A stretch of DNA of 64,000 bases, from positions 52-64,051 of the forward strand of contig JBKPAJ010000045.1 of the NCBI GenBank assembly GCA_046726375.1, written 5' to 3'. Each line of letters opens with the position of its first letter. The first letter of the stretch is position 1. A program made the position numbers and the translations under genes. Source of the stretch: Acidobacteriota bacterium. Lineage in GTDB: Bacteria; Acidobacteriota; Vicinamibacteria; Vicinamibacterales; UBA2999. Positions 9,716 to 26,664 of this stretch are shown here, in pieces. The notes under the pieces were generated by a model, which ran no database searches, was not told where the DNA came from, and was given only the letters and a program-made list of their open reading frames with translations.

Positions 9716-9762
9716 GCGTCCTATCGGCGGCGCGCGTTCTTCGTTCTTCGTTCTAAACCCAA

Positions 9763-9877
9763 GCTCACTTCAGTTCGCAGCGCCAACGGCGTTGAACGTT
9801 CGAACAAGGCCACTTTCGGCCCGAATCTTGCGGTCGGCTCCATGCCACGATCATCAACTCAAGTGAATTGAGGGGGG
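9763..9877 (+). repeat. Copy A of a 115-116 nt conserved structured intergenic element (possible ncRNA or miniature repeat)
   Basis: Shares blocks with copies B and C at the same offsets: GCTCRCT at offset 0, GCGCCAAC at offset 17, GCCWCGAT at about offset 75-84, and a 3' end (C)TCAAGTGAATTGAGGGG. The 5' tcacttcagtt pairs with the 3' aactcaagtga. Confidence 0.6.
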
Positions 9878-9909
9878 TAGTTCCCGCGCAGCGGGATAAT
9901 GCGGCTTCG

Positions 9910-11166
9910 ATGCCCTCCAACCACCGCGCTCGCCCTCGCGTCCTCGGCTTCGTGTTCGTCCTCGCCGTCATCACCTATCTCGATCGCATCTGCATTTCCG
10001 CCGCAGCGCCGTTCATCATGGCGGACCTCGGGATGAACGTGATCGAAATGAGCGTCGTGTTCAGCGCCTTCACGCTCGCCTACTCGCTCTTCGAAATCCC
10101 TTCGGGATGGCTTGGCGACGTCAGAGGGCCGCGCCGTGTGCTGACCCGCATTGTCATCTGGTGGTCGGCGTTCACCATGCTCACCGCGGCGGCGCAGGGC
10201 TTCCGCTCGCTCGTCGCCATTCGCTTTCTGTTCGGCGCGGGCGAAGCGGGCGCGTTTCCAAACATCGCGCGCAGCCTGTCGATGTGGTTTCCGCAGCGCG
10301 AGCGCGGCCGCGCCAATGGCGTGTTGTTCCTTGGATCGCGTCTGGGCGGCATGCTTTCTGCGCCGGCTGCCCTGTTTCTCATCTCTCGCTGGGACTGGCG
10401 CGTGAGCTTCATCGTGTTTGGCCTGCTCGGCCTCGTGTGGGCGGCCGCCTGGTTTGTGTGGTATCGCGACAGGCCGCAGGATCATCCGCGGATGACCAAG
10501 GAGGAGCTCGCCTGGATCGAACAGGATCGGGCGCCGGTCGCATCCGCTGCGCACGCCGCAACGCCGTGGCGGGTACTGCTCGCGAGCCGCAACCTCTACG
10601 CAATTTGCGCGATGTATTTCGCGTTCGGCTACGGGCTGTATTTCTACTTCACGTGGCTACCCACGTATTTGATCAAGGAGCTCGGGTTTTCGCTCCTAGG
10701 CGGTGGATTGTTTGCGGCACTTCCGTTTCTTCTGGCGGGGCTTGCAGATGTGAGCGGCGGGTGGCTCAGCGACCATCTCAGCCGCCGCTATGGGTTGCGC
10801 GCTGGCAGATGTTATCTGGGCTGTGGCGCGTTTCTGATGTGCGCGGTGCTGGTGTTTCTCTCCACCCTGGCGCTTCCTCCGGTCGGCAAAGCGCTGTTGC
10901 TCGCTTTCGCACTGGGCTCCGCCGATCTCGCCCTTGGCGCGTGTTGGGCGGTGCCCGTCGACATCGCGCCCGCCCATGCCGGAGTGGTAACCGGCTTCAT
11001 GAACACGCTGGGTAATCTCGGCGGCTTCGTCGGACCGATCGTCGTCGGCATTGCCGTCGAGCAATGGCATTCGTGGTCGTATCCGTTTTACATCACGGCG
11101 CTGGTCTACGCGGCGGGAGCGGCGGCGTGGCTGCTGATCGATCCGAAGCGGCCGATTGTCGCATGA
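9910..11166 (+). CDS. MFS transporter (anion:cation symporter-like)
   Basis: 12-TM-like profile. Typical MFS motifs are ITYLDRICIS and GWLGDVRGPRRVL (the loop 2-3 D-R-x-G-R-R signature). I chose the ATG at 9910. Confidence 0.8.
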   Translation: MPSNHRARPRVLGFVFVLAVITYLDRICISAAAPFIMADLGMNVIEMSVVFSAFTLAYSLFEIPSGWLGDVRGPRRVLTRIVIWWSAFTMLTAAAQGFRSLVAIRFLFGAGEAGAFPNIARSLSMWFPQRERGRANGVLFLGSRLGGMLSAPAALFLISRWDWRVSFIVFGLLGLVWAAAWFVWYRDRPQDHPRMTKEELAWIEQDRAPVASAAHAATPWRVLLASRNLYAICAMYFAFGYGLYFYFTWLPTYLIKELGFSLLGGGLFAALPFLLAGLADVSGGWLSDHLSRRYGLRAGRCYLGCGAFLMCAVLVFLSTLALPPVGKALLLAFALGSADLALGACWAVPVDIAPAHAGVVTGFMNTLGNLGGFVGPIVVGIAVEQWHSWSYPFYITALVYAAGAAAWLLIDPKRPIVA

Positions 11167-12007
11167 GAATCAGCCAGTGCGGGCACTTGCGGGTGTCCGC
11201 GTAGAGCCGCTCGCAGTCGTCGCAACGCACGCATTCGGTCATCACGATGCGCGGTCCGCGAATAGCACCCCACTCGCACTTCTTCTCGCAGATCCTGCAG
11301 GTATCGCACTCCGACCACCGCTTGATGCGAAATATCGTCACTGTCGAGAGCAAACCAAGCGCGGCGCCAAGAGGACAAAGAAAACGGCAATACAAATTGC
11401 GCACGAACACAGTTGCGGCCAGCAGCACACCAAGTCCGATCCACATGCCGGGAGTGGCCTGGCCGCCGAACATCCAGAACGGTTCGACGTAGCGGTAGAT
11501 CGAGGCGTCGCGCGTGGCGAAGAAATACAGGAGAGTGGCGCCAAGAATCGCATATTTGATCTTCGCGGCGCGCCGCTCGAGCGCGCCTGGCACTTCGATG
11601 CGCCATCGCGACGGCACCACGCGATCGATAAGCTGAGTGAGTGCGCCAAAGGCGCAGATGCGCCCGCAGTACAACCTTCCCCACAACACGGTCGTGACCA
11701 CGGCAAAGGCGGCAAAGCCATACCACGCGATGCTGTATTTAAAGACCGGGAGGCTCAACGTGAAGAGGCTGAACACGTTGACGATCGAAAGCAGCTGACT
11801 CTTGTAGAACCCCAGGTAGATCACCGAAAGCGCAAGCGTGACGTATTTCAGCCGCGTGCTCTTCCGATGAAAGCTGACGAGCACCAACGTGGCAAACGCC
11901 GCAAACATCGCGAGGTCCAGTCCCTGATCGCGAAGCAGCGTGCTCCAGCTGATCACGTCAGCGTCGTCCGGAGGAAAGGCCCAGGCGTCGGTGGGAGGTT
12001 GCATCAC
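11093..12007 (-). CDS. NapH/MauN/NosR-C-terminal-like membrane polyferredoxin (4Fe-4S binding)
   Basis: Several TM helices. Cys motifs are CGRICAFGA, CRFLCPLGA, CDTCRICEKKC and CVRCDDCERLY. The start overlaps the stop of the FMN_bind gene by 4 nt. Confidence 0.75.
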   Translation of the reverse strand: MMQPPTDAWAFPPDDADVISWSTLLRDQGLDLAMFAAFATLVLVSFHRKSTRLKYVTLALSVIYLGFYKSQLLSIVNVFSLFTLSLPVFKYSIAWYGFAAFAVVTTVLWGRLYCGRICAFGALTQLIDRVVPSRWRIEVPGALERRAAKIKYAILGATLLYFFATRDASIYRYVEPFWMFGGQATPGMWIGLGVLLAATVFVRNLYCRFLCPLGAALGLLSTVTIFRIKRWSECDTCRICEKKCEWGAIRGPRIVMTECVRCDDCERLYADTRKCPHWLILMRQSAASDRSAATPPLPPRRPAP

Positions 12008-12528
12008 TGAATTACCGGGGGCCCAAGCAGTTGCCGCGCAACACGCCGCGCGCTGTTTCTCACGGCGCGCGCTGCGCTCGACACCGTCATGGTCGCTCTC
12101 GAAACCGCGTCGATATCCGCGCCGACTTTGAACGCGTCGCGAATGTTCTTGTTGCGAAACTGGGCGGCAAACGCCGGTGGTTCGATGGAGAAATTTCCGT
12201 ATGGCTCGTTGTGCTGCGTCACGATGATGCCGGTGAGGATTCCTTTTGGATCCATGCCGACCAGAATCTTGATCGGTCCATCGAAACCGCGTTCCAGTGG
12301 CTCAAGCTCCGTCGTCCAGAACGCGTAACCTATCGGTGACGCGCCCGCCGCCGGCTCGTTCGCATAGACCTTGAAGTGCGGCGGATCGCCGCCCTTCGGC
12401 GAAAACGCCTTGGCCGCGGGAAAAAGCTGCGTGAGCTGCGTGTGCAGCTTTGGATCGATCGCCGTTTGCCGGCCCGACACCACGGCGGTCGTAGCGAGAA
12501 GCGCCGCGGTGAGGACGGGAACCTTCAT
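12004..12528 (-). CDS. Periplasmic FMN-binding (FMN_bind / NosR-N-terminal-like) protein
   Basis: Signal peptide MKVPVLTAALLATTAVVSG. The FMN_bind-like core is GPIKILVGMDPKGILTGIIVTQHNEPYG ... DIDAVSRATMTVSS (canonical D-x-x-S-G-A-T). The ATG at 12528 is preferred over the 12825 start. Confidence 0.75.
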   Translation of the reverse strand: MKVPVLTAALLATTAVVSGRQTAIDPKLHTQLTQLFPAAKAFSPKGGDPPHFKVYANEPAAGASPIGYAFWTTELEPLERGFDGPIKILVGMDPKGILTGIIVTQHNEPYGNFSIEPPAFAAQFRNKNIRDAFKVGADIDAVSRATMTVSSAARAVRNSARRVARQLLGPPVIQ

Positions 12529-12558
12529 GCGTGTAAAGTATCCACCCCGGAGGCGGAG

Positions 12559-13032
12559 ATGTCGAACACGCGGGTACGCACAACACTTGCATTGGCCTTG
12601 ATGCTGCTGACCGTTAACGCGTCGGCACAAGCGCCCAACGCGCCCTCTCCGCGGCTGAGCAAGGTGACGAGCCTGAAGTGCTCGTTCACGATGCAGGCAA
12701 CCGGCACCTGGAAAGGCGGAGAATCGCTGGCGTCGGTCAAAGCCGCGAAGCTTGCGACGGCGTTCAATGCGGTGAACATCGACGAGGGAACGGCGGAAGC
12801 CGTTGGCGACAGTGGCAAGTGGCACATCACCGTGCGTCTGCTTGGATCGTATTTACATTTCATGCAAATGGACCCGTACGGCGCGCTGCATGTTACGACC
12901 GTGATGGATACGGAAACGAGCGCGGGCAAGCTGCAAGCGGTCCATACGCGACACGAATACACGCCCGTGTCGCTGCCGGGACTGACGTCGCGGCCGGAGC
13001 AATATTACGGTGAGTGTGAAATCGGCAGGTGA
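12559..13032 (+). CDS. Hypothetical exported protein
   Basis: ATG at 12559 after a GGAGGCGGAG RBS. Signal peptide TLALALMLLTVNASAQA. I recognise no family. Confidence 0.5.
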   Translation: MSNTRVRTTLALALMLLTVNASAQAPNAPSPRLSKVTSLKCSFTMQATGTWKGGESLASVKAAKLATAFNAVNIDEGTAEAVGDSGKWHITVRLLGSYLHFMQMDPYGALHVTTVMDTETSAGKLQAVHTRHEYTPVSLPGLTSRPEQYYGECEIGR

Positions 13033-13124
13033 CGCGCGGGCTAAGCCGCGCCACTGCAGTCGCCGCGGAGGCGGGCCTAAGCCGACCGCGTGAGGGCGGC
13101 TAACGCCGCACCACCACGTTACCT

Positions 13125-14153
13125 TCAAGCGCGCTGCGAAAAGCGCCCGCGCCGCACTTTTGCGAGCGGTGAGGAGTCTCCGTTGAGAAACGCGCGAAGT
13201 TCCGCCGCAACCATGTCCGGCGCGTCCTCCTGCAAGTTGTGGCCGGCCGGCAGCGAGCGGCCGCTCACCGTCGTCGCCCGCTCTTTCCAGATCGACAGCA
13301 CGTCATAGAGGCGTCCCATCGGCGCCTTCGCGCCCCAAAGCGCCAGCAGCGGGCACGCAATCTTCTGGTCGAGATCGGCTCTGTCGTGATCGAGATCGAT
13401 GGATGCACCGGCCCGATAGTCTTCGCACATGCCGTGAATGTTTGCCGGGTCGCGTCGCACACGCAGGTACTCGGCATCGACCTCCGCCGTCATGCGGCTC
13501 GCCTGCCGCTCGATGTCTTCTTTCAGCTGGTTCTCGGGACCGGGCGCCGGACGGAGATAGTTGAACCAGTGGAAGTACGCCTGGACGAACTCGATGGTGA
13601 CGTGCGTATACAGGTAATACGTCGGCACGATGTCGAGCACCGCCAGCTTTGTGACCCGATCGGGATGATCGAGCGCCATCCGGTGGCCGACTCGGCCGCC
13701 GCGGTCGTGGCCTATGACCGCGAACTTTTCAAAGCCCAGTTTTCGCATCACCTCGACCTGGTCGAGCGCCATCGCACGCTTGGAGTAGTTGGCGTGGCGA
13801 TCGCCATCAGGCGGCTTGCTACTGTCGCCGTAGCCGCGAAGGTCGGTGACGACAACGGCGTGATCCGTTGCGAGCATCGGCGCCGCGAGCCGCCACGAAA
13901 TCATCGATTGCGGCGCGCCATGCAACAACAGCACGGGCGAGCCCTGGCCCGCCATCACCCCATTGATCGTGCCGCCGGTCACCTCGACGGTGATCGATTT
14001 GAATCCGGGAAAGAATTTCGCTGCGGGCGATGCCGGCGCCTGCGTGCCGGCCTGCGCATCGAGCGACCCGGCGTCGGCGGTGGGCAACGCGCTTGCGGTG
14101 ACGACCGCGCCCATCTGCAGGAGGACATCGCGCCGTGTCAGTCGTGTTGTCAT
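13125..14153 (-). CDS. Alpha/beta-fold hydrolase (epoxide hydrolase/haloacetate dehalogenase-like), Tat-exported
   Basis: The stretch TRLTRRDVLLQMGAVVTASALP is Tat-like. The motifs HGAPQS, the nucleophile elbow GHDRGG and a C-terminal GHNLQEDAP are present. Confidence 0.8.
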   Translation of the reverse strand: MTTRLTRRDVLLQMGAVVTASALPTADAGSLDAQAGTQAPASPAAKFFPGFKSITVEVTGGTINGVMAGQGSPVLLLHGAPQSMISWRLAAPMLATDHAVVVTDLRGYGDSSKPPDGDRHANYSKRAMALDQVEVMRKLGFEKFAVIGHDRGGRVGHRMALDHPDRVTKLAVLDIVPTYYLYTHVTIEFVQAYFHWFNYLRPAPGPENQLKEDIERQASRMTAEVDAEYLRVRRDPANIHGMCEDYRAGASIDLDHDRADLDQKIACPLLALWGAKAPMGRLYDVLSIWKERATTVSGRSLPAGHNLQEDAPDMVAAELRAFLNGDSSPLAKVRRGRFSQRA

Positions 14154-14226
14154 GGCCGTTGTTGAGCCTACTCCGCCTCTAGGTGCGCGCACAACCTCAG
14201 CCTCATTACGTCATTTTGTGTAACCG

Positions 14227-14244
14227 TTACGTATAATAACGTAA
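14227..14244. promoter_or_regulatory. AT-rich perfect palindrome TTACGT-ATAATA-ACGTAA containing TATAAT and ending on the A of the ATG
   Basis: Read directly from the sequence. A third ATTACGT half-site lies at 14205-14211. This is the only strongly AT-rich patch in this divergent intergenic region. Confidence 0.35.
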
Positions 14245-15383
14245 TGGAACCGGCCAATCCCTTCGTCTACGGCGAAATCGTCACCCAGCGCGCCTTCGCC
14301 GACCGCGAGGATGAACGGGAACGGCTGGCGTCCGACCTCGCCGCCGGGCAGAAGACCTTCCTCATCTCCCCGCGCCGCTACGGCAAATCATCGCTCATCC
14401 GCGACGTCATGCACGGCCTGGCGAAGCAGCGCATCCTGACGGTCGAAGTCACCGTTGCCGCATCGAGCTCGTACGTCGGCTTCCTCGAAGCGTACGCGCG
14501 AGCACTCGTCTCGGCGGAGACGCCGACAGGAAGCATTCGGCGCTGGGCTGGCGAGCTCCTCCAGTCGCTGCGGCCGGAGCTTCGCTTCGATAGCGAGCCG
14601 GGCTTCGCGCTGTCCTTTCCCACCGTGCGCAACGCGCGCGACGCCGCCAGACTGGCCACCGAAGTGTTCGCACTGCCCGGCCGCATTGCGGCCGTGCGTC
14701 GAAAGAACCTGGCGATCGCATTGGATGAGTTCCAGACCATTGCGTCATTCGACGGCGGGACGGTTGAACACGCGTTGCGGGCGGCCGTTCAGGAACAGCG
14801 CACCGTCGGGTACGTGTTTGCCGGCTCGGAACCCTCCCTGATGGAGCGGATGCTCGGGCCGCGCCGGCCGTTCTACAAGGCTGGTCCGGTGATGCGTCTG
14901 GAAAAGATCGACCCCGCCGTGTTCGCCTCGTTTCTCGAAGCACGATTTACGGCCAGCGGGATTCGGCCCGAGCCGGGGCTTGGTACCGCGATTGTCGAAC
15001 TCGGGGGCAACGTGCCTTACGATGTGCAGCGTCTCGCGCATGAAACGTGGGACGACGTGAGGGCGGCCGGGCGGAGGACGGCCGGACTCGAGGACCTGCA
15101 CGGCACTCTTACGCGGCTGCTCGGACAGCAGCACACCGTGTTCGAAGAATCATGGCAGCGCCTCACGCTTGCGCAGCGCGGCGTACTCCGCGCGCTGGTC
15201 TTGCAGGACGGCCGCGAGCTGCTCTCGGCCGACGTCCGCACCCGCCATCGTTTACCCGGAGCCTCGAGCGTCCAGGCCGCCCTCGCCGCGCTCGTGCGCG
15301 ACGATATCGTGATGAAAGAAGGCTCGCGCTACGTACTTGGCGATTCGCTCTACCGCGAGTGGGTCGCGCGCAAAACGTTTTAG
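14244..15383 (+). CDS. AAA-type ATPase (Arch_ATPase/ATPase_2-like) with C-terminal winged-helix-like region
   Basis: The N-terminus PFVYGEIVTQRAFADREDERERL and the Walker A-like ISPRRYGKSSL match the family. A Walker B-like LAIALDEFQ is present, and the C-terminal end is typical of the DUF234-type tail. Confidence 0.65.
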   Translation: MEPANPFVYGEIVTQRAFADREDERERLASDLAAGQKTFLISPRRYGKSSLIRDVMHGLAKQRILTVEVTVAASSSYVGFLEAYARALVSAETPTGSIRRWAGELLQSLRPELRFDSEPGFALSFPTVRNARDAARLATEVFALPGRIAAVRRKNLAIALDEFQTIASFDGGTVEHALRAAVQEQRTVGYVFAGSEPSLMERMLGPRRPFYKAGPVMRLEKIDPAVFASFLEARFTASGIRPEPGLGTAIVELGGNVPYDVQRLAHETWDDVRAAGRRTAGLEDLHGTLTRLLGQQHTVFEESWQRLTLAQRGVLRALVLQDGRELLSADVRTRHRLPGASSVQAALAALVRDDIVMKEGSRYVLGDSLYREWVARKTF

Positions 15384-15414
15384 CCACGAGCTCCACGCAA
15401 CGCGGAGATCGCAG

Positions 15415-16548
15415 TTATTCTTGCGCAAATTCCCGCAGTGCGCTCTCGACCACACGAACTGCACGCCAGTACTCATCGAGCAGTAAGTGCTCATTCGGCG
15501 TGTGATCGAGCGCGCTGTCTCCAGGACCGTACGCGAGGATCGGGCACCGCCAAATGGGCGCGACGACGTTCATGTCGCTCGTGCCCGACTTCAAGAGAAA
15601 GCCCGGTTGCGCCGAGGAGTCCACGCCTCGAATGGCGGCGAGGAAGCTTCGCACGAGCGGGTTCTGGCGATCCGCTCGCCACGCCTGTTCGACTCCACGG
15701 AACCGACACTCGATCGAAGTGCGCGTGGCGCCGATAGCGGAGGCTTGCTCAGCGATCTGCTTCATGAAGGCATCACTGTCGAATCCGACCGGAAGCCGCC
15801 AGGCAAACTGCGCCTCGACCACGTCGAGCATCTCTGGCGTGGTCGCGGTCACAAAGCGGCGAAGACTCGGGCTCAGTTGGTCGAACACCTTCTCGCGGCC
15901 CGTATTGACGCCGGCCGCGTGCGCCGTGACCCAGTTCCACAAATCGACAACCACTTGTGCGACGCTGGCGTCCGGACCTGCGGTATGTGCCATCGGTTGG
16001 TGCGCGGTGAGATCGAGCAGAAGGCGACCCTTGTAGCCGAGCGTCACGCGGTGCCAGTGGCTCGGTTCACCGATGACACATGCGCCAGGAATGGGCTCGC
16101 GGCTACCGTCGAAACGCGCAGCAATGAATCGCGCCCCCTTACTCGTTGCAGCTTCTTCCTCGACCGCTCCCACGACAACAATGCGGAGCCGATGCTGGCG
16201 CGCCCACGTCGACCCGAGTCGTGCAACGGCGGCGGCGAACGTTGCGAGCGGCCCCTTGGCGTCGACGCTGCCGCGTCCATACAACACGTCGCCACGGGGT
16301 GACGCTTCGACGCGGACCGGAATTACGCCGGGAACAGTATCGATGTGTCCGAGCAGAACGACCGTTCGGCCCGCGCCGCCCTCGCCCATCTCGCCGATGG
16401 CGTTGCCAGCCTCGTCCACGAAGGCGCGGTCATAACCCAACGTGGTCATCTGCTGCACCAGCCAGCGGGCCGCTTCCGATTCCTCTCGCGAGATCGATCG
16501 GATGGCGACGAGGTCGTGAAGGAGTTCGACCGCGCGTTTACGGTCCAT
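15415..16548 (-). CDS. lysK: [LysW]-lysine/ornithine hydrolase (M20 peptidase, ArgE/LysK family)
   Basis: M20 motifs LLGHIDTVP and GRGSVDAKG. It is the last gene of the lysW cluster. Its start shares one nucleotide with the lysJ stop (TGATG). Confidence 0.75.
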
Positions 16549-17732
16549 CAGGCGGCGAGACTCCGAATCGCGTTGGCGATCGCCGTCACGCCTATCGCAA
16601 TCTCTTCTTCGGAAATGACGAGCGGCGGCAGCAGTCGCAGCACAGTCGAGCCGGCGGGAAGCGCAATGACTCCGTGCTCGAGCATCAGCGTCTTCAACAC
16701 CGGTGCAACTTTGGTCCGCAGCTCGATGGCGAGCATCAGCCCCAGTCCTCGGACTTCGCGAACGATCGACACATCACCGAGCGCCGCGCGCAGCGCCGAC
16801 AACATCTGCTCGCCAAGTTTCGCGCTGCGCGTAATCAAATCCTCATCTCGATAGACGGCGAGCGCGGCAACGCCCGCCGCGCAGGCCAGCGGCGAACCAC
16901 CAAACGTGCTGCCGTGCGCGCCGGGCGAAAGCGCATCGCGCACCGCTTTTATATAGGCGAACGCGCCCATCGGAAAGCCGCCGCCGAGTCCTTTCGCCAT
17001 GCAGACGATGTCCGGCTCGATGCCCGCGTGCTCGAAGCCGAACCAACGGCCGGTGCGGCCGAAGCCGGTCTGAATTTCATCGAGGATGAGCAGCGCGCCA
17101 CGCTCGCGACAAAGGCGTTGCGCCGCGTGAAGGAAATCAGCGGCGCCGATGTTTACGCCGCTCTCGCCCTGCACGGCCTCGAGAATCACGGCTGCGGTGC
17201 GATCGCCGATGGCTTTGTCGAGCGCGGCCGCGTCGTTGAAAGGGACATGCGTCGTTTCGAGCAGCGGCAGAAACCCTTCGCGATACTTCGGCTCCCACGT
17301 CACCGACAGTGCACCGACGGTGCGGCCGTGGAAGCCCTTCGTGGTGGACACAAACGCGGCCCGTTTGGTGGTAAGCCGCGCGATTTTGAGCGCGCCGTCC
17401 ACTGCTTCGCCGCCGCTGTTTGCGAGAAACACGTGCGGCAGATGAGCGGGGAGTACACCGACGAGCGCGTGCGCGAATGCGGCCCGAACGTCGTTGTAAA
17501 GGTAATTGGGGCACAGCGTGAGCGTGCGCGCCTGACGCGCAATCGCGTCGGTCACACGCGGGTGACAATGCCCCAGCATTGCCACCCCTTGCGCCGAAGA
17601 GAGATCGAGATAGCGGCGGCCGTCGGAGTCGATCAGCCAGCAACCCTCGCCGCGAACGAAAACGGCGTCGCCGCGTCGCGCAGTGGTGCCGCCCAGGATG
17701 AGTTCTTCGATCGCCGCGCGAGGATCGGGCAT
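16548..17732 (-). CDS. lysJ: [LysW]-aminoadipate semialdehyde / acetylornithine aminotransferase (class III PLP)
   Basis: Class-III aminotransferase motifs: [28 protein letters not shown] and the PLP-lysine context [14 protein letters not shown]. Confidence 0.8.
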
Positions 17733-17741
17733 TGTCGGTCG

Positions 17742-18545: not shown

Positions 18546-18660
18546 GTCTGTTGGCGGACCTAAGGGTCCGCGGCTCCTTACCTTGATACATGTCGCGGCG
18601 GACGTGAAAAGGCCCGCGCCAACCCACCCTGATCCATGTAGCGGCGGAGTTCCGCCATCC

Positions 18661-19716
18661 TTAAATCGGGTGCAGTCCGGGGAATTGCAATCCCACGGTC
18701 TCATCCCACCCCATCATCACGTTGAGGCACTGCACCGCTGTCCCAGCCGCGCCTTTCATCAGGTTGTCGATCGCACACATCGCGACCACACGGCCCGAAG
18801 AGGCGTCGAACTCGAACCCGACGTCGGCGTAGTTGCTGCCGGACAGAATCTTCGGCTCCGGGTAGCGATAAAGTCCCGCGCGCTCCTTCACGATGCGCAC
18901 GAACGGCTCTTGCCCATACGCCTCGCGGTAGGCCTTCCACAGATCTTTCTCAGCGACATCACGATTGACGAAAACGTGAGCAGTGGCAAGAACACCACGC
19001 ACGTTATCGATGGCCGTCGCGCTGAGATGCACGTCGGTTTCAATTCCTCGCAGCCGCAACGCTTGCAACACTTCGGCGGTGTGGCGGTGGCCTGTTGGCG
19101 CAAAACTGCGCATCACACCGGCGCGCTCGGGATGATGCGAGGCATCGCTCGACGTCGCACCCGCCTCGCTGCTCCCGACTTTCACCTCGCACACGATGCC
19201 ACGCTGCGGATTGATCAGCCCGGCGACCGCCAGCGGCCACACAGCGAGGGTTGTCGCCGTGGCGTTGCAGCCAACGCCGCTGACGAACCTTGCCGCCGCA
19301 ATTTCCGCACGAAGCAGCTCAGGCAGGCCGTACACAAAGCGTTCAAGCCACGACGGACTCGCGTGCGGCTTGCCATACCAGCGTACGTAGTCCTGGTCGC
19401 GTCGAAGTCGAAAATCGGCGCTCAGATCGACGATGCGCTGCGTCAGCGCCGCAAATTCGTCGATGCGTGACATCGCACTGCCATGCGGCAGACACAAAAA
19501 CACGACGTCCGCGTGCTCGAGCGCATCAGCTCGAACGAATTTGAGGGTTGTTCGGCGTCTGAGATTCGGATGCGTGAAGTAAACGAACTGCCCGTCGAGG
19601 CGTTCGCTCGTGACCTGCTTGACGTCGATATTGCGATGATCGAGCAGAAGCCGCAGCAGCTCGCCGCCCGTGTATCCAGATCCGCCGACGATGGCGGCAG
19701 TAAGGCGCTCGGCCAT
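18661..19716 (-). CDS. lysY: [LysW]-aminoadipyl-phosphate reductase / N-acetyl-gamma-glutamyl-phosphate reductase
   Basis: N-terminal AIVGGSGYTGGELLRLL. The active-site context is VSGVGCNATA, and the ArgC-like C-terminus is DNLMKGAAGTAVQCLN. Confidence 0.85.
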   Translation of the reverse strand: MAERLTAAIVGGSGYTGGELLRLLLDHRNIDVKQVTSERLDGQFVYFTHPNLRRRTTLKFVRADALEHADVVFLCLPHGSAMSRIDEFAALTQRIVDLSADFRLRRDQDYVRWYGKPHASPSWLERFVYGLPELLRAEIAAARFVSGVGCNATATTLAVWPLAVAGLINPQRGIVCEVKVGSSEAGATSSDASHHPERAGVMRSFAPTGHRHTAEVLQALRLRGIETDVHLSATAIDNVRGVLATAHVFVNRDVAEKDLWKAYREAYGQEPFVRIVKERAGLYRYPEPKILSGSNYADVGFEFDASSGRVVAMCAIDNLMKGAAGTAVQCLNVMMGWDETVGLQFPGLHPI

Positions 19717-19733
19717 CCGCTCCTAACCTCGGA

Positions 19734-19848
19734 GCTCGCTTGAGGTGGTGGCGCCAACCGCGCGAGAAACGCTCGGACAGTGCTCCTTGTGACCCATATC
19801 GCCGTATTGCCTCGATGCTGCGCTTGTCCACTCAAGTGAATTGAGGGG
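19734..19848 (+). repeat. Copy B of the 115-116 nt structured element, filling the lysX-lysY intergenic gap in antisense orientation to the operon
   Basis: It has the same conserved blocks and offsets as copies A and C. A 12-bp closing helix forms between tcgcttgaggtgg and ccactcaagtga, with one G.U pair and one bulge. Confidence 0.6.
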
Positions 19849-19849
19849 C

Positions 19850-20809
19850 TTAGACCGACGCGCCTTCCGCGAGCGAGATCGCCGTGACATGCGGGGCCGT
19901 TCCGGGAGGCCAACCGTTGGCCGCGTTCCAGCCGTCCTTCGCGACCGCCAGGCAGAAATCGACCATCCGCTCCGGGATGTTGACGTTGGTCGGCGCGATG
20001 CTGTTGCGAAACTCCATGGTGTAGTTGACTTCGTTGACCAGAAGACCACGATCGGGATCTTCAAAGAGATCCAGCGCCACCATGCCTCCGCCGACTGCTC
20101 TCGCCGCGCGCGTGCAGATGTCAGCGAGCTCCGGCGTGATTGGACAGTTGCTGGACGTGCCGCCCCGCGCCGTGTTGGTGATCCAGCTGGGGGAGGTGCG
20201 ATAGATCGCACAGATCGTCTCTGGGCCGACCTGAAATGCGCGAATATCGCGGCCGGGCTTCTTTACGTACTCCTGGATGTAGAAGATGCTGTGGTGATAG
20301 CTGCCGAGCGTTTCTTTGTGCTCGAGAATCGCTTCAGCCGCGTCGCGATCGTTCACCTTGCTCAACAACCGTCCCCACGAACCGACTGTCGGTTTGAGCA
20401 CCGCTGGATATCCGAGCTGTTCGATCGCTTCCAGCGCGCTCTCGGGCGTGTAAGCGATGAGCGCCTTCGGCTGCGGCACGCCTGCCGCAGCGAGTGCACT
20501 GGTGGTCATCAGCTTGTTGCCGCAAATATCCGCCACCAGCGCGGTGTTGACGGTGCGCACGCCTTGATCGTTCAGAATCTTGAGGCTGTACAGCGCGCGG
20601 CTGTGGTTGATGCAGCGTTCGATGATGACGTCGTAGTCGCGATAACGATGATTGACGACGTCGGTGATGTCGAAGATTAGTTTCTGGTCGTCGAGGAGAT
20701 CGAGCGTGACACCACGGCGATCGAACGCTTCGAAAAGGAGCTTCTCTTCGACGCGAACGCGACTGTACAGGACACCGACCCGCAGCGTGCCGGAGTGGCC
20801 GTTATTCAC
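19850..20809 (-). CDS. lysX: LysW-alpha-aminoadipate ligase (RimK/ATP-grasp family)
   Basis: ATP-grasp/RimK-like stretches: [20 protein letters not shown], and [18 protein letters not shown]. It overlaps lysW by 8 nt. Confidence 0.85.
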
Positions 20810-20987
20810 CCCAGTCCTCTTCCTCCTGTGGAGCCAGCGCCAGGGTCAAGGGCTCGATGGCGACAACTTCGAGTTCTGCGCCGCAGCCGGAACACTGCGT
20901 GATCTCGTGTTGCATGACGTTGGTAAGCGTCACTTCGGCAAAGCACTCCGGGCATTGAGCCTGCCCGCTGGCGGTCTGAACGGCCAT
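20802..20987 (-). CDS. lysW: Amino-group carrier protein LysW
   Basis: 61 aa. It has a zinc ribbon CPEC...CSGC and an acidic C-terminal tail ending EEEDWGE, the canonical EDWGE carrier terminus. Confidence 0.85.
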
Positions 20988-21037
20988 TTCAACTCCTGCG
21001 CGATCGTGTGAGGTGAAGATTTTATACGAGCGCGTCA

Positions 21038-21070
21038 GCGACCTCCGTCCCTGCTAACGACGGAGGTCGC
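21038..21070 (-). terminator. Perfect 12-bp hairpin downstream of the VOC gene and upstream of lysW
   Basis: gcgacctccgtc (21038-21049) pairs with gacggaggtcgc (21059-21070) around a 9-nt loop. A third gacggaggtc copy lies at 21078-21087. No U-run follows, so its terminator function is uncertain. Confidence 0.4.
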
Positions 21071-21086
21071 GAATGGTGACGGAGGT

Positions 21087-21686
21087 CTACTCGTTCTTCG
21101 TCTGGTTGCTGATCTGAAGGTCCCAGCCATCCGGATCGAACACGTGGTAGCTCTTGAAGTTGTCGCCCACCATGTCGGGCCGCGGGTTGAGGCCGCGCCG
21201 TTCGAGCTCCGCTTTCACTTTGTCGGTGTCCCACGGCTGCACACCGAACGAGATGTGGTTGATGACACCGGTGAGCGGTGGACGCGGGCGGCCGGATTGG
21301 CCAGCTGCCGGCGCTGCAGCTGGTGCGCCTTGAGCGGAGGGCGCCGCCGCCTCCTGTCCATCCCGTTGCGGGCGGTTGCGAATGATGATCTGTCCGACGT
21401 TCCCGATGTCGAGCGTCGCCTGCGTCTTGCCGTTGTCGTTGCGGATTTCCCATCCCATCAAACTCGAATAGAACGCGGCACTCTTTTTATAGTCCGTCAC
21501 TTGATAAGAGATGTGGTCCAACCACACGGTTTTCCACGGCGCCTTATCCACGGGCGCCGACTGAGCGCCCAGTGTCGTGGCCGTCGGCGCCGCCATCGCC
21601 GCCATCGCCAGACTTTGAATCAGCTGTCGGCGCGTCATCCTGCCGTCTTCAAATTCCTTGAGCAACCTGGCGATTTCGGTTTCCAT
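21087..21686 (-). CDS. VOC (glyoxalase/bleomycin-resistance/dioxygenase) family protein, Tat-like signal
   Basis: The ATG at 21686 follows a GGAGGC RBS. The N-terminus reads RMTRRQLIQSLAMAAMAAPTA. VOC-like stretches are LDHISYQVTDYKKSAAFY and INHISFGV. Confidence 0.7.
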   Translation of the reverse strand: METEIARLLKEFEDGRMTRRQLIQSLAMAAMAAPTATTLGAQSAPVDKAPWKTVWLDHISYQVTDYKKSAAFYSSLMGWEIRNDNGKTQATLDIGNVGQIIIRNRPQRDGQEAAAPSAQGAPAAAPAAGQSGRPRPPLTGVINHISFGVQPWDTDKVKAELERRGLNPRPDMVGDNFKSYHVFDPDGWDLQISNQTKNE

Positions 21687-21844
21687 GTCGGCCTCCTTGA
21701 ACGGGCGAAATATACCGTGAATTCGCGCCGACGAGCTGCTAGCTCGGCTATCGCCCGGAACCAATTGCTGTTAGTGACGGGCCGGTGCCGCGCCATAATG
21801 GTGCCTTGCGGCGTGGGTCGGGCGATTCGACCGAAGGAGAGTTC

Positions 21845-22051
21845 ATGGCATCGACGCAGGGCACGATCAAGCGATTGATTAGCGACAAGGGGTTTGGGTT
21901 CGTGGCCGCGCAGGATGGAAGCGAATACTTCTTTCATCAGTCGGCATGTGTGGATACCAGATTCGATCAGTTGCGCGAAGGACAGGCAGTCACATTTGAC
22001 AAAGGCCAGGGACCGAAAGGACCCCGGGCAGAAAACGTGCGTCCAGTGTAG
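21845..22051 (+). CDS. cspA: Cold-shock protein (CspA family)
   Basis: 68 aa. It has the RNP1 motif KGFGFV and the RNP2-like motif YFFHQS. A GAAGGAGAG RBS precedes the ATG at 21845. Confidence 0.9.
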   Translation: MASTQGTIKRLISDKGFGFVAAQDGSEYFFHQSACVDTRFDQLREGQAVTFDKGQGPKGPRAENVRPV

Positions 22052-22136
22052 GGCGATCAGGGAGTTTCGACGGGAAGATCTCCGAGATCGAGGAGCGATT
22101 GACAGAGAGATCAGGAGGATCAGGGAGAAGAATTAT

Positions 22137-22310
22137 CTCCCCGATCTCCCAAACTCCCTGTTAAGGTTCTCCCCGATCTCCCAAACTCCCTGTTAAGGTT
22201 CTCCCCGATCTCCCAAACTCCCTGTTAAGGTTCTCCCGATCTCCCCAATCTCTCGTTAAGGTTCTTCCCCGATCTCCCCAATCTCCCCGTTGAGGTTCTC
22301 CCGATCTCTC
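22137..22310. repeat. Tandem array of a ~32-bp unit (3 identical + 2 diverged + 1 partial copy)
   Basis: ctccccgatctcccaaactccctgttaaggtt occurs at 22137, 22169 and 22201. Diverged units lie at 22233 (31 bp) and 22264 (34 bp), with a partial unit at 22298. A partial inverted copy (cagggagttt...gggaagatctccgagatcgaggag) lies at about 22057-22100. Confidence 0.85.
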
Positions 22311-23122
22311 TACTTGCGCGTCGCCGTGAACGCGCCGTTCGTTCCACCCTTCACGGTTCCTTTGATGCTTTTGCCATCGACGCGGCCCGTGTAGCTCACG
22401 CCACCGGCCGAGAACGTGATTTCGTCGCCGCGCAGGCGACCGCTGACCGGCGTCGAACCAAGCATGCCCGACACCATCTGGAACTCCTGCTTTAGCGTGA
22501 GCGGATTCGAGCCGAGTTGCCACGTCCCCTCGACCTTCGCGGGCACGATCCACAGCAGCGCCGTACACCAGTTGGTGCAATCTCCGGAGATCTCCTGCTT
22601 GTCGTCCGCTTCCCAATCCTCCATCGTGAACGAGTTCGACACAATGCGCGTGCCCGGCTTGAGCTCGAGCAGCTTGGGCCGGAGTTTCATATTGATCGAG
22701 GGCAACAGGAACATGGTGATCACCTGCGCCTTCGACAGATCGGTCTCGAAGAGATCGGCTTTCTCGAACGTGGCGCGGGCACTCACGCCTGCAGCCGCGG
22801 CATTCTTCACCGACAACTCCACCATGTCGGGGTTGTACTCGATGCCGTGCGCGCGCGCGCCGCGCTTCGCCGCCGTAATCACCGTGCGGCCATCACCCGA
22901 TCCGAGATCGATCACATAGTCCTGCGGCGTCACCTTGGCCATGTCGAGCATCTTGTCGACGAGCGCCTGCGACGTCGGCACCCACACGACGTCCTTGCCC
23001 GCTTGACCCACCTGCGGCTCGAACGGTTTTTGAGGGGCGGGCTGCTGCGCGCGCCCCGCCGTAGCGGCCAACGCAATCGCCGCAATCAATGCAAACAAAC
23101 GAAAGACGTGCCGTGCTGTCAT
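22310..23122 (-). CDS. Class I SAM-dependent methyltransferase with N-terminal signal peptide and C-terminal beta-rich domain
   Basis: Signal peptide FRLFALIAAIALAATAGRAQQ. SAM motif I is VIDLGSGDGRTVITAAKRGA and the post-I motif is HGIEYNPD. Confidence 0.75.
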   Translation of the reverse strand: MTARHVFRLFALIAAIALAATAGRAQQPAPQKPFEPQVGQAGKDVVWVPTSQALVDKMLDMAKVTPQDYVIDLGSGDGRTVITAAKRGARAHGIEYNPDMVELSVKNAAAAGVSARATFEKADLFETDLSKAQVITMFLLPSINMKLRPKLLELKPGTRIVSNSFTMEDWEADDKQEISGDCTNWCTALLWIVPAKVEGTWQLGSNPLTLKQEFQMVSGMLGSTPVSGRLRGDEITFSAGGVSYTGRVDGKSIKGTVKGGTNGAFTATRK

Positions 23123-23197
23123 CGATAGCCTCTTTCAAATAGACCGGGTAGCTGGTGACCCGCGTCGCGACTGGCGATTATACGGCTGGAATGGAAC

Positions 23198-24037
23198 ATG
23201 CAACCCGAGCGTTTCGGTATGTCTCACGAGCTGGCTGGTTCGCCTGTCGCACAAGAGCTGCGGCCATGGGTCGCGCGCGCGGTGCGAGGGGGATACGTCG
23301 CCAAAGGTCTCATCTATTTACTGATTGGGGCACTTGCGCTGCGTCTGGCCGCAGGATTGAAAGGCGGCCGGTTGATGGATCCCGGCGGCGCATTGGTGAT
23401 GTTGATGCGCCAGCCATTCGGTCAGATCATCGTCGCGATCTTGGGGATCGCGATCCTCGCGTACTCCGCATGGCAATTTGTCGCTGCTATCTGGGACACC
23501 CGCCGCAAAGGCCGCGGGTGGAAGGGCTGGATGGGTCGTGCGTTGACAACGATCAAAGGCGCGGCGTACGGAGCCGTGGGCTGGCAGGCGCTGCGCCTGG
23601 TGATGGGCATGCGTTCGACATCGACCCGCCCCAGCGCGGTGGCCGCCGATGTGCTGACCGTCCCGCTCGGAGATATCTTTCTTTTTCTGGTCGGCGCGGG
23701 CGTGGCAGTGTACGGGGCCTTCGAGCTCCGGGACGCCGTGGGTTCGAGATTTGGTGACGATTTCGACGAACACCGATTCCGGCGCGAAACCGGATCATGG
23801 GCGGTGGCGATCGGCTGCTTCGGCAACGCGGCCCGTGCGGTGCTTCTGATGACGATCGGCGTGGCGCTGATCACAGCCGCAGTGCAGCGCGAACCGGGCG
23901 AAGCCGGCGGCGTCGCGCACGCTCTCGCAACGCTCTTCTCGCAACGATACGGAATCGTGCTCGCAGGAGCAGTGGCGGCTGGCCTGACGTGTTTTGGACT
24001 CTTTCAATTCATGCACGCACGCTACGCGCGGCTGTGA
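23198..24037 (+). CDS. DUF1206-type membrane protein
   Basis: Three repeats of paired TM helices with G(Y/A)xAKG-type heads (GYVAKGLIYLLIG, GAAYGAVGWQAL, NAARAVLLMTIG), as I recall for DUF1206. Confidence 0.6.
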   Translation: MQPERFGMSHELAGSPVAQELRPWVARAVRGGYVAKGLIYLLIGALALRLAAGLKGGRLMDPGGALVMLMRQPFGQIIVAILGIAILAYSAWQFVAAIWDTRRKGRGWKGWMGRALTTIKGAAYGAVGWQALRLVMGMRSTSTRPSAVAADVLTVPLGDIFLFLVGAGVAVYGAFELRDAVGSRFGDDFDEHRFRRETGSWAVAIGCFGNAARAVLLMTIGVALITAAVQREPGEAGGVAHALATLFSQRYGIVLAGAVAAGLTCFGLFQFMHARYARL

Positions 24038-24071
24038 GCGGCGGCCTTACACGCTCGAGGTCTGTGGCGGC

Positions 24072-24572
24072 TTATTCGTGCCGGCATCTGCGGCTCGTCC
24101 CAGCCGCCGCGGCAGGCCCCGCGTTTTCAAGACCAGCGGCCACCGTGGCGGCCACGGCGTCGGCGGTGATCGGCTTCGATCGATACGCGTCGAAGCCGGC
24201 CTCGAGCGCACGCCCTTGGCTTTCAGCTGTGGCGTAAGCCGTGACGGCAACGGCGCCGATTCGCCCGATTGCGCCATCGAGCGCACGGATGCGACGCATC
24301 AACGCGTATCCATCTTCGCCAGGCAGCCCGATGTCGGCGACCAGCACATCCGGACGACGCCGCGCGTCGCCCACAATTATGGCAAGCGCGTCCTGTGCGG
24401 TAGAAACGGCGATCACCTCCGCGCCGTCACGCATCAGCACCGTCTGGAGCAAGTCACGCCAATCGCCGTCATCGTCCACAATCATCACGCGACGTGGACC
24501 GAGCGAGACGCGCGGCGTCTCGACTTTGACATCGTCAGCGGCGGCCTCGGTGACGACCGACGGAAAGCTCAC
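24072..24572 (-). CDS. Stand-alone response-regulator receiver domain protein
   Basis: The stretch VMIVDDDGDWRDLL...PDVLVADIGLPGEDGY...AVTAY...YRSKP carries the phospho-acceptor Asp and conserved T/K positions. There is no output domain and no adjacent kinase. Confidence 0.8.
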   Translation of the reverse strand: MSFPSVVTEAAADDVKVETPRVSLGPRRVMIVDDDGDWRDLLQTVLMRDGAEVIAVSTAQDALAIIVGDARRRPDVLVADIGLPGEDGYALMRRIRALDGAIGRIGAVAVTAYATAESQGRALEAGFDAYRSKPITADAVAATVAAGLENAGPAAAAGTSRRCRHE

Positions 24573-24584
24573 AGTAAAGAGGAT

Positions 24585-25607
24585 TTATCGGCTGGTGTCT
24601 GTCCGATTGGCGACACGACGCCCGATTTCAATGGCTTTGAAGCCTGGTTCACCCCAATTCATCACAAAGACGCCGAAGCCTTGCTTCATCCGCATTTCGA
24701 TGTCGTCGGGTGTTGCGGGATAGCCACACGCTAGCTTGAACTCCTTGCACGCCGAGAGCACTTGCTGAATCGCGGCTTCCCACGCCGCTTGATCGACCTG
24801 CCGCTGACCGTTGGCGTCGGTCGTGGAGAACACCCCGCGCAGCGTGCCCGCGCCGGGCCACAGCACGCCGATGCCCTTCACGGCGGCGATCTCGCGCACA
24901 TGCGCGAGACCCTCCTTGCTCTCGACAATGGTCCAGTTCACGAGTTCGCCTTCGGGGTTGAGCGGCCAGAGATCGGCCTGGCGGCGATAATCTGCTTCGG
25001 ACATCCCCCAAAACGCGGGCGCCGACCCGACGTCTTCCGAACGCATGCCGCCCTTCGACTTGAAGCGCATCGCCGCGAGCCCTTGTTTGACCTCGGCGGC
25101 GCTCTCGACTTTCACGAACATGATGCCGCTCACGCCGAGATTGAGCTGCTTGCCGATGCCCTCCGCCGCCTTCGCAGGATCGGTTGCGATCTCCTGTGTC
25201 TTCACGACCAGCGGATGCGTCAGTCGCAGCAACGGTGATGTGCGCAGCGCGCCGGCTTGCTGCATGCCTTTCACGAAGTCCGCGTAGGCCGGAAGGGCGC
25301 GATCGACGCCGCCCTCCATGCTGCCGTCGAAGATGAAGTCGGCCGATTTGTAAGCGACCGCGTCGGTGGCGAGTTCGAGTGGCGTCTTCTGTGGCGGCGC
25401 TGGTGTGCTTGGTGCGCTCGCCGCCGCTCCGCCGGGTCCGCGTCCGCCGGATCGTCGATTGCTGGGAGCATACAGGCCGAAGACCGGCTTGTTCTGTTCG
25501 AGCAGATCGATCATCGAATTCAGGTGCGGCTTGCGCGACTGCGCGTCGAGAGTCAAATACCCGCCGACCAACACACCTGCCATGACGACAAATTTCAAAT
25601 GACGCAT
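24585..25607 (-). CDS. Exported HpcH/HpaI aldolase/citrate-lyase-like TIM-barrel protein (tentative)
   Basis: The ATG at 25607 follows a GGAGGCC RBS. Signal peptide MRHLKFVVMAGVLVGGYLTLDAQS. The stretches GVSGIMFVKVESAAEVKQGLAAMRF..GGMRS and IVESKEGLAHVREIAAVKGIGVLWPGAGTL resemble HpcH/HpaI motifs. Confidence 0.45.
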   Translation of the reverse strand: MRHLKFVVMAGVLVGGYLTLDAQSRKPHLNSMIDLLEQNKPVFGLYAPSNRRSGGRGPGGAAASAPSTPAPPQKTPLELATDAVAYKSADFIFDGSMEGGVDRALPAYADFVKGMQQAGALRTSPLLRLTHPLVVKTQEIATDPAKAAEGIGKQLNLGVSGIMFVKVESAAEVKQGLAAMRFKSKGGMRSEDVGSAPAFWGMSEADYRRQADLWPLNPEGELVNWTIVESKEGLAHVREIAAVKGIGVLWPGAGTLRGVFSTTDANGQRQVDQAAWEAAIQQVLSACKEFKLACGYPATPDDIEMRMKQGFGVFVMNWGEPGFKAIEIGRRVANRTDTSR

Positions 25608-25697
25608 AGGGCCTCCTTGCGCGAGCGAAACGCAGAGTATATCCGCTGTACGCAGCTCAGGCGGCACCGCGACTGGCGAATGCCGCCTGATTAACAA

Positions 25698-26354
25698 CTA
25701 GCGTCGGGAATTCCAATTCCCTTCGCGATAGCCCTCGTCGTAGCCGGCGCGGAAACCGTCGCGATACACATCCTTGTAACGGTTCTTGTCGCCGTACGAA
25801 TCGAGGTAGCCGCGGTCCGCTGCACGATACCGGCCGTGACGCGTGGCGTCGAACCGATCGTTGTCACGGCCATCTTCGAGGCCCTGCGCGCGACCGTCGC
25901 GATACCCGTTCTCGTACGCGGTGTCGCCGTAGCGGGAGCCGCGGTAATACGGGTCGTAGGTGCCGTTGGGTGTGCGATTGCGTCCAGGCACCCGGCCAAC
26001 GCCGCGGTCGTCATCAGGATATGGATACGTCCGCCATGTGCCGTTCGGATCGTAGCGGCCATTGCCATAGCGGCCATACGGGTCGTAGACGTTCTCGCCG
26101 TAAATCACTCGCGCGTTGCGGTTGCGCGCGGCGGTCGCCTCCGCTTGCCGGCAGGTCGTGGCACCGGGCTGGCGCCCATTCGGCACGCCGTCATACCAGA
26201 CGCGGCACATGTTGGCTGGGGGGAGCTGCCCGGGCGCGACGCCCTGGGCGCGCGCAATGTCGTTCCGGTTTCTTCCACGGCTCTGTGCATCTGCCGTGGA
26301 GGCCAGCGGCAGAAACGCGGTCAGAGCCACAATCACTGCGGTCGTTCGAAACAT
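25698..26354 (-). CDS. Exported low-complexity R/Y/G/D/N-rich protein
   Basis: Signal peptide ending ASTADAQS. The motif PPANMCRVWYDGVPNGRQPG is followed by repeated YDPYGRYGNGRYDP and GYRDG / YRDGFRAGYDEGYREG units. Confidence 0.55.
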   Translation of the reverse strand: MFRTTAVIVALTAFLPLASTADAQSRGRNRNDIARAQGVAPGQLPPANMCRVWYDGVPNGRQPGATTCRQAEATAARNRNARVIYGENVYDPYGRYGNGRYDPNGTWRTYPYPDDDRGVGRVPGRNRTPNGTYDPYYRGSRYGDTAYENGYRDGRAQGLEDGRDNDRFDATRHGRYRAADRGYLDSYGDKNRYKDVYRDGFRAGYDEGYREGNWNSRR

Positions 26355-26540
26355 TCGGTCACCTCGCGATTCCAGCCCGTCTGACGGGCCACCTCACCGT
26401 CGATACTGCACGACCGGTACCAACCTCGAGTAGAACGCGAATCCGGCAAAAATCGGGCGCATCGACGGTTCGTTTCGCGTGTCCGTCCTCTCGTCCGGAC
26501 GCGCCGCGAGTCATGTACCATGTGCGAGGGCCTGAACCCG

Positions 26541-26656
26541 GCTCACTCGAGTGAACAGCGCCAACGTCGCGAAGTGCGCGAACGCCGCCCGCGTTTTCGC
26601 CCGTCCACTCGGATTACCTCGACGGCCACGATGCGCAACGCAAGTGAATTGAGGGG
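26541..26656 (+). repeat. Copy C of the 115-116 nt structured element; its 3' GAGGGG lies 8 nt upstream of the rhomboid start codon
   Basis: It has the same blocks and offsets as copies A and B (GCTCACT, GCGCCAAC at +17, GCCACGAT, CAAGTGAATTGAGGGG). Confidence 0.6.
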
Positions 26657-26664
26657 CTGAACCG

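Follow-up and report, generated by a model that had tools for sequence, protein, structure and literature searches.

For the 107-bp RUP (repeat unit of pneumococcus) of Streptococcus pneumoniae, a miniature inverted-repeat transposable element (MITE), IS630-Spn1 has been suggested as the source of mobility (Oggioni & Claverys 1999, reviewed in PMC2229807). The standard argument for such mobilisation in trans, applied to that pair, combines a duplicated TA with ends homologous to those of an insertion sequence (IS; PMC2229807). Repetitive extragenic palindromic (REP) sequences, for their part, are known high-copy targets of IS110-family elements (PMC1525189). The window analysed here is a 64,000-nt stretch of an Acidobacteriota genome (C45:52-64051 of genome G000, 6.79 Mb in 256 contigs, 62.9% GC), in which three same-strand copies (A, B and C) of an intergenic element of about 122 nt are present. 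We propose, with a probability of roughly 0.9, that this element is a MITE, a non-autonomous DNA transposon related to, and mobilised in trans by, a transposase of the IS630 type. The initial annotation of this DNA had hesitated between a regulatory or small RNA and a MITE-like miniature repeat inserting between genes; its second alternative was the correct one, as the copies are many and have both terminal inverted repeats and target duplications. No description of this MITE family was found in the literature searched.

The three window copies, confirmed from the sequence and alignable end to end, are mutually 58-63% identical, which is why conserved blocks had initially been seen within a poorly conserved interior. 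Their 16-nt 3' motif CAAGTGAATTGAGGGG matches the window three times, whereas shuffles predict 0.02 matches, and with up to two mismatches allowed it matches the genome 170 times. Iterated nhmmer searches yielded 184 copies in G000, almost evenly divided between the minus (93) and plus (91) strands and amounting to ~20.4 kb (0.3% of the genome), and the window thus holds three of about 184. The element is short, non-coding and dispersed over the 256 contigs. Clustering of 147 full-length copies at 85% identity gave four expanded clusters (56, 25, 14 and 7 copies) and 45 singletons, with a mean pairwise identity within subfamilies of 0.87-0.95 and a maximum of 0.977 among the full-length copies compared.

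The copies have imperfect terminal inverted repeats of ~25 nt that can be written TA-ACCCC..TCACTTGAGTT ... AACTCAAGTGAATTGAGGGGN-TA. The flank logo reads Y-TA/A-N-CCC ... GGGG-N/TA-R, where slashes mark the element borders. The base preceding the right TA is subfamily-specific (C, T or G) and the base following the left TA is nearly always A, so both belong to the element and the duplicated flank is TA only. Comparison of the 5' arm with the reverse complement of the 3' arm showed symmetry over ~25 nt (CCCC, A, TCACTTG, (AG), TT) at 0.6-0.95 per position, and none deeper than these terminal nucleotides except in one subfamily; the element is therefore not a long hairpin but an asymmetric body bounded by terminal inverted repeats. 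Two unusual loci were seen in passing. In an array at G000:C247:11204-11574 the repeated unit, 128 nt long, takes in 14 nt of flanking sequence, which indicates tandem duplication rather than transposition. At G000:C240:3360-3410 an internal deletion has reduced a copy to its two ends, 34 nt in all.

Target-site duplications, which had been proposed as something to look for, were found as TA/TA and, in three copies, as TG/TG. Comparison of empty and filled sites at four loci in congeneric genomes revealed one TA before insertion and two after. At the lysY-lysX junction occupied by copy B, G001 (same genus, about 93% identical) is empty and reads CATCCGAGAT-TA-GACC, against CATCCGCTCC-TA-(element)-TA-GACC here; the site is unoccupied in five related genomes (G001 and four more), and its TA is part of the TAA stop codon of lysX. 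At C25:2534 the empty sequence TATTTC-TA-GGAC of G001 corresponds to TATTTC-TA-(element)-TA-GGAC, and at C124:2974 G004 is empty (GGCTG-TA-GCC) while the site is filled both here and in G001. The fourth locus, C18:15457, reads CAT-CA-GAGCTC in the empty G002 and G004 and CAT-TA-(element)-TA-GAGCTC here. The empty sites CTAG, TTAG and GTAG conform to a palindromic NTAN target. A joined-flank search of congeners with 11 copies found some sites empty, some filled in both species and some filled only here, G001, G002 or G004 being empty at sites occupied in G000, and neighbouring copies in the C8 and C2 arrays have one TA in common. In three copies, copy C included, both flanks read TG. Independent mutation of the two ends is unlikely to produce such agreement, which supports a genuine duplication at a non-canonical target.

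The ends of the element led to its likely partner, found in the sister species G004, which has 25 DDE_3 (Pfam PF13358) matches. A four-copy IS630-family element of 1,013 bp in that genome reads gac-TA-ACCCCTAAAGGTACTTGAGTTGCCGT ... ACGGCAACTCAAGTGCCGTTAGGGAT-TA-gtc, with the end sequences TA-ACCCCTAAAGGTACTTGAGTTGCCG ... GGCAACTCAAGTGCCGTTAGGGAT-TA, and a second IS630 type reads TA-ATCCCTTCACGCACTTGATGTGAC ... CATCAAGTGCGGAGTGGGAT-TA. IS and MITE share their architecture at the left end (TA, A(C/T)CCC, 5-6 nt, CACTTGAGTTGCCG) and at the right end (GCAACTCAAGTG, 6-7 nt, GGG-N-TA), with identical runs of 12-13 nt and a similarity that reaches about 10-15 nt into the subterminal regions. Of the IS ends, ACTTGAGTTGCCG recurs unchanged in one MITE copy, and GCAACTCAAGTG matches the 14-copy cluster (subfamily 2) consensus at every position. 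Autonomous elements with matching ends thus exist in G004, and because TA duplication is combined with ends homologous to those of IS630-family elements, we infer that an IS630-type transposase of the G004 kind moves this MITE. The MITE would be a relative of the G004-type IS, either a deletion derivative or an element with the same ends; the transposase would bind both inverted repeats, and cut and paste the MITE in trans into a TA, preferably within YTAR, with duplication of the TA.

Several observations weigh against this reading. No cognate IS630 copy was found in G000 itself, so that mobilisation here would be historical or due to a lost or unassembled element. The sequence common to IS and MITE comprises the termini and ~10-15 subterminal nucleotides, not the whole interior, which leaves a direct origin by deletion unproven. 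The MITE is GC-rich, unlike most described bacterial MITEs. Its internal blocks GCGCCAACGGCGCG and TCGATGCCACGAT persist in subfamilies with no more than 60-70% identity, and the known IS ends leave them unexplained. Blocks conserved between subfamilies, these two included, may represent cis-requirements of transposition acting on source copies. As G000 has no cognate transposase and no compared full-length pair exceeds 97.7% identity, the family is probably dormant in this genome.

Other candidate partners or parents were discarded. The single DDE_3 gene of G000, on contig C1, has ends (CTAGTGTGG...CACACTAG) unlike those of the MITE; this IS630-family element (G000:C1:48480-49920) has AT-rich tandem words of the GAGATTTGAAAATCTG type on both sides. 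IS630 loci of 25 other genera of the family had neither matching ends nor the motif. No pairs of a 5'-only and a 3'-only MITE match 0.5-5 kb apart, sought as a sign of a full-length element, were present in G000 or G004. A solo 3' end on metagenome contig L102, considered as a possible IS end, was a remnant between two ordinary genes, and a longer element with the same 3' end (C10, C31, C201 and C209), considered as a possible parent, proved to be an IS110-family IS inserted into the MITE.

The same two lines of evidence, TA duplication and IS630 end homology, refute the notion that the element is a REP/REPIN-type repeat moved as single-stranded DNA by a REP-associated tyrosine transposase (RAYT, a Y1 transposase), which we regard as practically dismissed. 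Two Y1_Tnp proteins are encoded in G000, and the element is targeted by an IS110-family IS, as REPs are. Y1 transposases, however, make no duplication of the kind seen at the empty and filled sites, the element forms no full hairpin, its interior being asymmetric and only ~25 terminal nucleotides symmetric, and its ends match those of a DDE-type IS630 element. REPs proper are palindromes of 20-40 nt or hairpin doublets, usually with a GTAG or CGTC tag and a linked RAYT, and a separate, classical GTAG-tagged REP family in G000 fits the RAYTs better. The Y1_Tnp (RAYT/IS200-like) proteins lie at C71:34824-35159 and C183:10286-10618. The separate REP-like palindrome, CGCGGACCT-(G/A)AAG-GTCCGCG-CTAC (GTAG-tagged on the other strand), has ~93 matches genome-wide, for example at G000:C17:41654, C22:161760 and C62:24563, and six of its copies directly adjoin a MITE end (C100:4164 and C246:14285 are right-flank examples).

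The distribution of the MITE, counted with a covariance model that was based on 42 diverse copies and used sequence alone, is consistent with a mobile element. Such a search of relatives had been suggested initially and it found further copies in congeners: at least 42 in G001, at least 22 in G003 and at least 73 in G004, with three weak matches in G002. Copy number within the genus therefore ranges from 3 to 184. No MITE match was detected in 55 of 59 other genomes sampled from the order; G043, G073 and G085 had one marginal match each (E 2e-4 to 9e-4), and G020, of another family, had one strong copy. This lone copy (G020:C4:3018-3142, 72.9 bits) could be due to horizontal transfer or to a binning error. 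A scan of reference genomes with the exact pattern gave one other match, in an Acidobacteriota metagenome-assembled genome, and 33 soil metagenome contigs had the MITE 3' end, nearly all of them as full copies. The MITE family is essentially genus-restricted, with lineage-specific bursts.

The RNA alternative, which goes back to the initial annotation, takes the element for a structured RNA, cis-regulatory or small, whose end helix and local 3' hairpin (CTCAA-GTGAA-TTGAG) exclude each other and regulate the gene downstream, for instance by hiding or exposing GAGGGG as a ribosome-binding site. In its favour, the ends are complementary (79.1% of cells paired over the 42 diverse copies), GAGGGG of copy C lies 8 nt upstream of the rhomboid TTG, as had been reported, and in about 13 copies the 3' end is no more than 15 nt from a start codon. 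The window gave no Rfam match at the gathering threshold, nor did the surroundings of copy A at E<=10, and the recommended comparison with Acido-1 and Acido-Lenti-1 was equally negative. The consensus fold computed by RNAalifold for the 42 diverse copies reached -0.59 kcal/mol, with three trivial pairs and no compensatory changes. Shuffles equalled the percentage of paired cells of the end helix in 191/500 cases and its covariation score in 364/500, and for the CTCAA/TTGAG hairpin (78.8% of cells paired) they equalled both scores in 369/500 and 378/500. Since both helices perform no better than shuffles, the pairing potential is just that of a conserved inverted repeat; the reported complementarity of 5' and 3' ends is real, whereas the compensatory change claimed with it has no support. 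The highest-ranking mutual-information column pairs, considered as possible helices, track a deep two-clade split (GAAACGCTCGAAC vs GAGCCGCGCGAAAGC), and in the asymmetry of GU versus AC mismatches, used as another test of RNA pairing, fixed asymmetries dominate.

The relation to genes also speaks against the RNA reading. Copies are equally frequent on both strands and, by a crude open reading frame (ORF) caller based on GC content at third codon positions, on which all gene-context figures depend, they occur in stop/stop (40), stop/start (36), start/stop (32) and start/start (25) contexts. The GAGGGG end and the 5' end are within 15 nt of a start codon equally often (13 vs 13), and the idea of the MITE as a mobile Shine-Dalgarno donor was abandoned for this absence of orientation bias. 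Inside subfamilies, in-situ mutation does not spare the 3' motif, and no promoter-like or terminator-like site was seen inside the three window copies. Taken with the missing Rfam match and consensus fold, this makes an RNA with mutually exclusive helices very improbable.

Somewhat less remote, though still unlikely, is a domesticated repeat kept by selection for a host function at the DNA level, such as the binding of a nucleoid or regulatory protein, like the integration host factor (IHF) site of Correia elements, or a role as recombination or landing site. Singletons that are ~61% identical overall retain GCGCCAACGGCGCG, TCGATGCCACGAT and the 3' AAGTGAATTGAGGGG with a conservation of at least 75-90%, and three pairs of copies that share a site in G000 and G001 have the same core AGTGAATTGAGG despite interior differences of 16-32%. 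The conserved ends, however, are expected from the requirements of a transposase on source copies. For 137 copies, assigned to three large subfamilies by interior sequence only, in-situ mismatch was 0.07-0.15 at the termini, not below that of the interior (0.06-0.075), from which it follows that copies are unprotected after insertion; the in-situ conservation of the 3' motif suggested by the three site-sharing pairs was thus unconfirmed by the within-subfamily profiles. Site-sharing copies diverge at a roughly neutral rate, and site occupancy is polymorphic between species. One site-sharing pair has different subfamily types at one TA. At the TA site common to G000:C76:39907-40025 and G001:C202:14668-14795, the occupants belong to different deep clades and differ from each other by 32% (GAGAAACG..TCGAAC in one, GAGCCGCGC..AAAGCC in the other), which suggests independent hot-spot insertion or copy replacement. 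Altogether, the site-sharing pairs are consistent with neutral decay plus recurrent use of a preferred site.

Domestication could also be read from the proximity of copies to stop codons, since in 35 of 102 cleanly flanked copies (34%) one flanking TA falls within the stop codon of a neighbouring gene, against 10-19% expected for random non-coding TA or YTAR sites. This enrichment rests on the crude gene calls, and YTAR preference with purifying selection can produce it. YTAR sites are concentrated at stop codons in a genome of 63% GC. Since TAA or TAG is restored by the first base of the element (A), and by its last base where that is C or T, insertions into stop codons are harmless. We read the enrichment as target preference plus purifying selection.

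Under the IS630-related MITE interpretation the three window copies are ordinary insertions, and their coordinates are collected in Table 1. The initial annotation had placed them at 9763-9877, 19734-19848 and 26541-26656; the elements are real but these borders are too narrow, starting 7-8 nt inside the 5' end. GCTCRCT at the first position of those intervals and GCGCCAAC at +17 do occur in all three copies, whereas a GCC(A/T)CGAT block also attributed to all three is, in copy B, not at the homologous position in a proper alignment.

Table 1 Coordinates of the MITE copies in the window and of their terminal features.
Feature	Position	Strand	Basis or context
MITE copy A, 122 nt	9756..9877	+	Sequence, nhmmer, clustering; member of 25-copy cluster (85% identity)
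Copy A left TA of target-site duplication	9754..9755		Sequence and flank logo
Copy A right TA of target-site duplication	9878..9879		Sequence and flank logo
Copy A 5' terminal inverted repeat (AACCCAAGCTCACTTCAGTTCG...)	9756..9781	+	Symmetry analysis; homology to left end of G004 IS630-family elements
Copy A 3' terminal inverted repeat (...ATCAACTCAAGTGAATTGAGGGGGG)	9852..9877	+	Symmetry and comparison with G004 IS ends
MITE copy B, 125 nt, divergent singleton	19726..19850	+	Between lysY start (CAT 19714-19716, minus strand) and lysX stop
Copy B left TA of duplication	19724..19725		G001 has single site CATCCGAGAT-TA-GACC
Copy B right TA of duplication	19851..19852		With T19850 makes lysX TAA stop codon, minus strand
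MITE copy C, 123 nt, divergent singleton	26535..26657	+	Directly upstream of rhomboid gene, TTG at 26665
Copy C left TG, non-canonical duplicated target dinucleotide	26533..26534		Flank concordance
Copy C right TG of duplication	26658..26659		Flank concordance

According to Pfam, copy A lies between genes for ApbE and a major facilitator superfamily (MFS) transporter, at the distance from the MFS ATG (about 32 nt) already reported. Its subfamily is large, 37 copies matching the interior consensus, and the corresponding ApbE-MFS spacer of G001 has no detectable MITE copy or motif. Copy A was inserted inside a repeat of GTTCTTC words downstream of apbE. MITEs within runs of GTTCTTC/GTTCGTT words were observed at its left flank (window 9736-9755) and at G000:C183:6061-6178, C138:17142, C88:15739 and C5:36-80, an example of the pre-insertion sequence at such sites being ...cgttcC-TA-GTTCTTCGTTC. 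Copy B, correctly placed between lysX and lysY from the start, is flanked by a LysY-like semialdehyde dehydrogenase gene and by lysX, and split the junction of the two by landing in the lysX stop codon. The lysY upstream spacer beside it (window 19717-19725) has CCGCTCC (AGGAG on the coding strand), against CCGAGAT in G001, and lysY may perhaps have gained a ribosome-binding site of its own after the insertion uncoupled it from lysX. Downstream of copy C, Pfam identified the rhomboid gene. GAGGGG may well serve the rhomboid gene as its ribosome-binding site, but any such influence on a neighbouring gene is local and incidental.

The MITE is in turn a target of other mobile elements. An IS110-family IS of 1,477 bp (DEDD_Tnp_IS110 2.9e-26, Transposase_20 1.1e-20) is inserted in the MITE 3' repeat, with the junction ...AACT/CC AAAG...GGGACA CT/CAAGTG implying a CT core, always at the same dinucleotide. 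It is present in three full copies, with two remnants and perhaps a fourth junction; the 1,477-bp copy is G000:C209:1-1263 joined to G000:C211:1-355 (reverse strand). BLAST located left junctions on C211, C82 (C82:18537-18746) and C244 (C244:1-129), and right junctions on C209, C201 (C201:21590-21709) and C31 (C31:43155-43274); a MITE broken off at this very position where contig C203 ends (C203:40828-40931) may be the fourth. One remnant is an 87-nt IS110 end at G000:C10:3423-3509. The other, GTGGCGCATGGGGCACT, is 17 nt long, reproduces the IS110 right end exactly and lies in the MITE at G000:C31:34486-34621. Both look as if left behind by loss or internal deletion of the IS. The 225-nt 5' non-coding region of the IS110 element holds ACTTGAGT, which has the same sequence as the target on both sides of the insertion point and is, as a lead, a candidate bridge-RNA guide (PMC11208160, PMC11187229); no bridge-RNA family was found by Rfam in this region.

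A group II intron, present as a single copy on the plus strand of C30 (about 10114-12081) with the MITE on the opposite strand, was recognised by Rfam (RF02003, 93.9 bits; RF00029, 41.7 bits) and by a frameshift-split ORF for a reverse transcriptase/maturase (RVT_1 plus GIIM). It sits between CACTTG and AGTTGATG, 2 nt from the IS110 site, and the sequence to set against its exon-binding sites EBS1/EBS2 is CCTCAATTCACTTG. The chances appear about even that the invariant CACTTGAG of the MITE 3' repeat is a safe-harbour landing pad shared by two unrelated RNA-guided elements, the IS110-family element with its recombinase of the bridge-RNA type and the group II intron 2 nt away on the same strand. 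If so, the MITE family would be the hub of a three-layer nested mobilome and would supply natural guide-target pairs from Acidobacteriota. The nested insertions show sequence-guided elements that, in nature, exploit a multicopy MITE as a target where they do no harm.

For Acidobacteriota, these results add a well-documented MITE/IS630 pair, described from its ends and subfamilies to its target and empty sites. The intergenic element, conspicuous for its conservation, turns out to be selfish DNA and not a riboswitch-like regulator, and there is no cause to annotate it as a novel RNA. The family accounts for part of the fragmentation of this draft assembly and marks operon junctions split by insertion, such as lysX-lysY.

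Set against known systems, the MITE resembles the REPs targeted by IS110-family elements (PMC1525189) in being a high-copy intergenic repeat that serves as a sequence-specific landing site, but the target here is a DDE-type MITE and not a REP palindrome, and a group II intron uses nearly the same position. With the IS630/Tc1-mariner elements (DDE_3, PF13358) it shares TA duplication in a palindromic NTAN/YTAR site and ends homologous to those of the 1.0-kb G004 elements, although it has no transposase gene and only termini and short subterminal stretches in common with them. The Correia elements or NEMIS of Neisseria (PMC2229807) are similar in size (100-155 bp), inverted repeats (~24-26 bp), TA duplication, hundreds of copies near genes and internally deleted size variants; Correia elements differ in lacking a known transposase partner, and the IHF site, promoter or RNase III functions are theirs. 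From RUP the MITE is distinguished by the absence of sequence similarity, by its host phylum and GC-richness, by inverted repeats of ~25 nt as opposed to 9 contiguous bp, by a cognate IS located in a sister species and not in the same genome, and by being itself the landing place of other mobile elements, whereas RUP tends to land in IS elements. Both, nevertheless, are non-coding repeats of ~110-120 nt with about 100-200 intergenic copies, inserted at TA, divided into several subfamilies and bounded by IS630-like inverted repeats.

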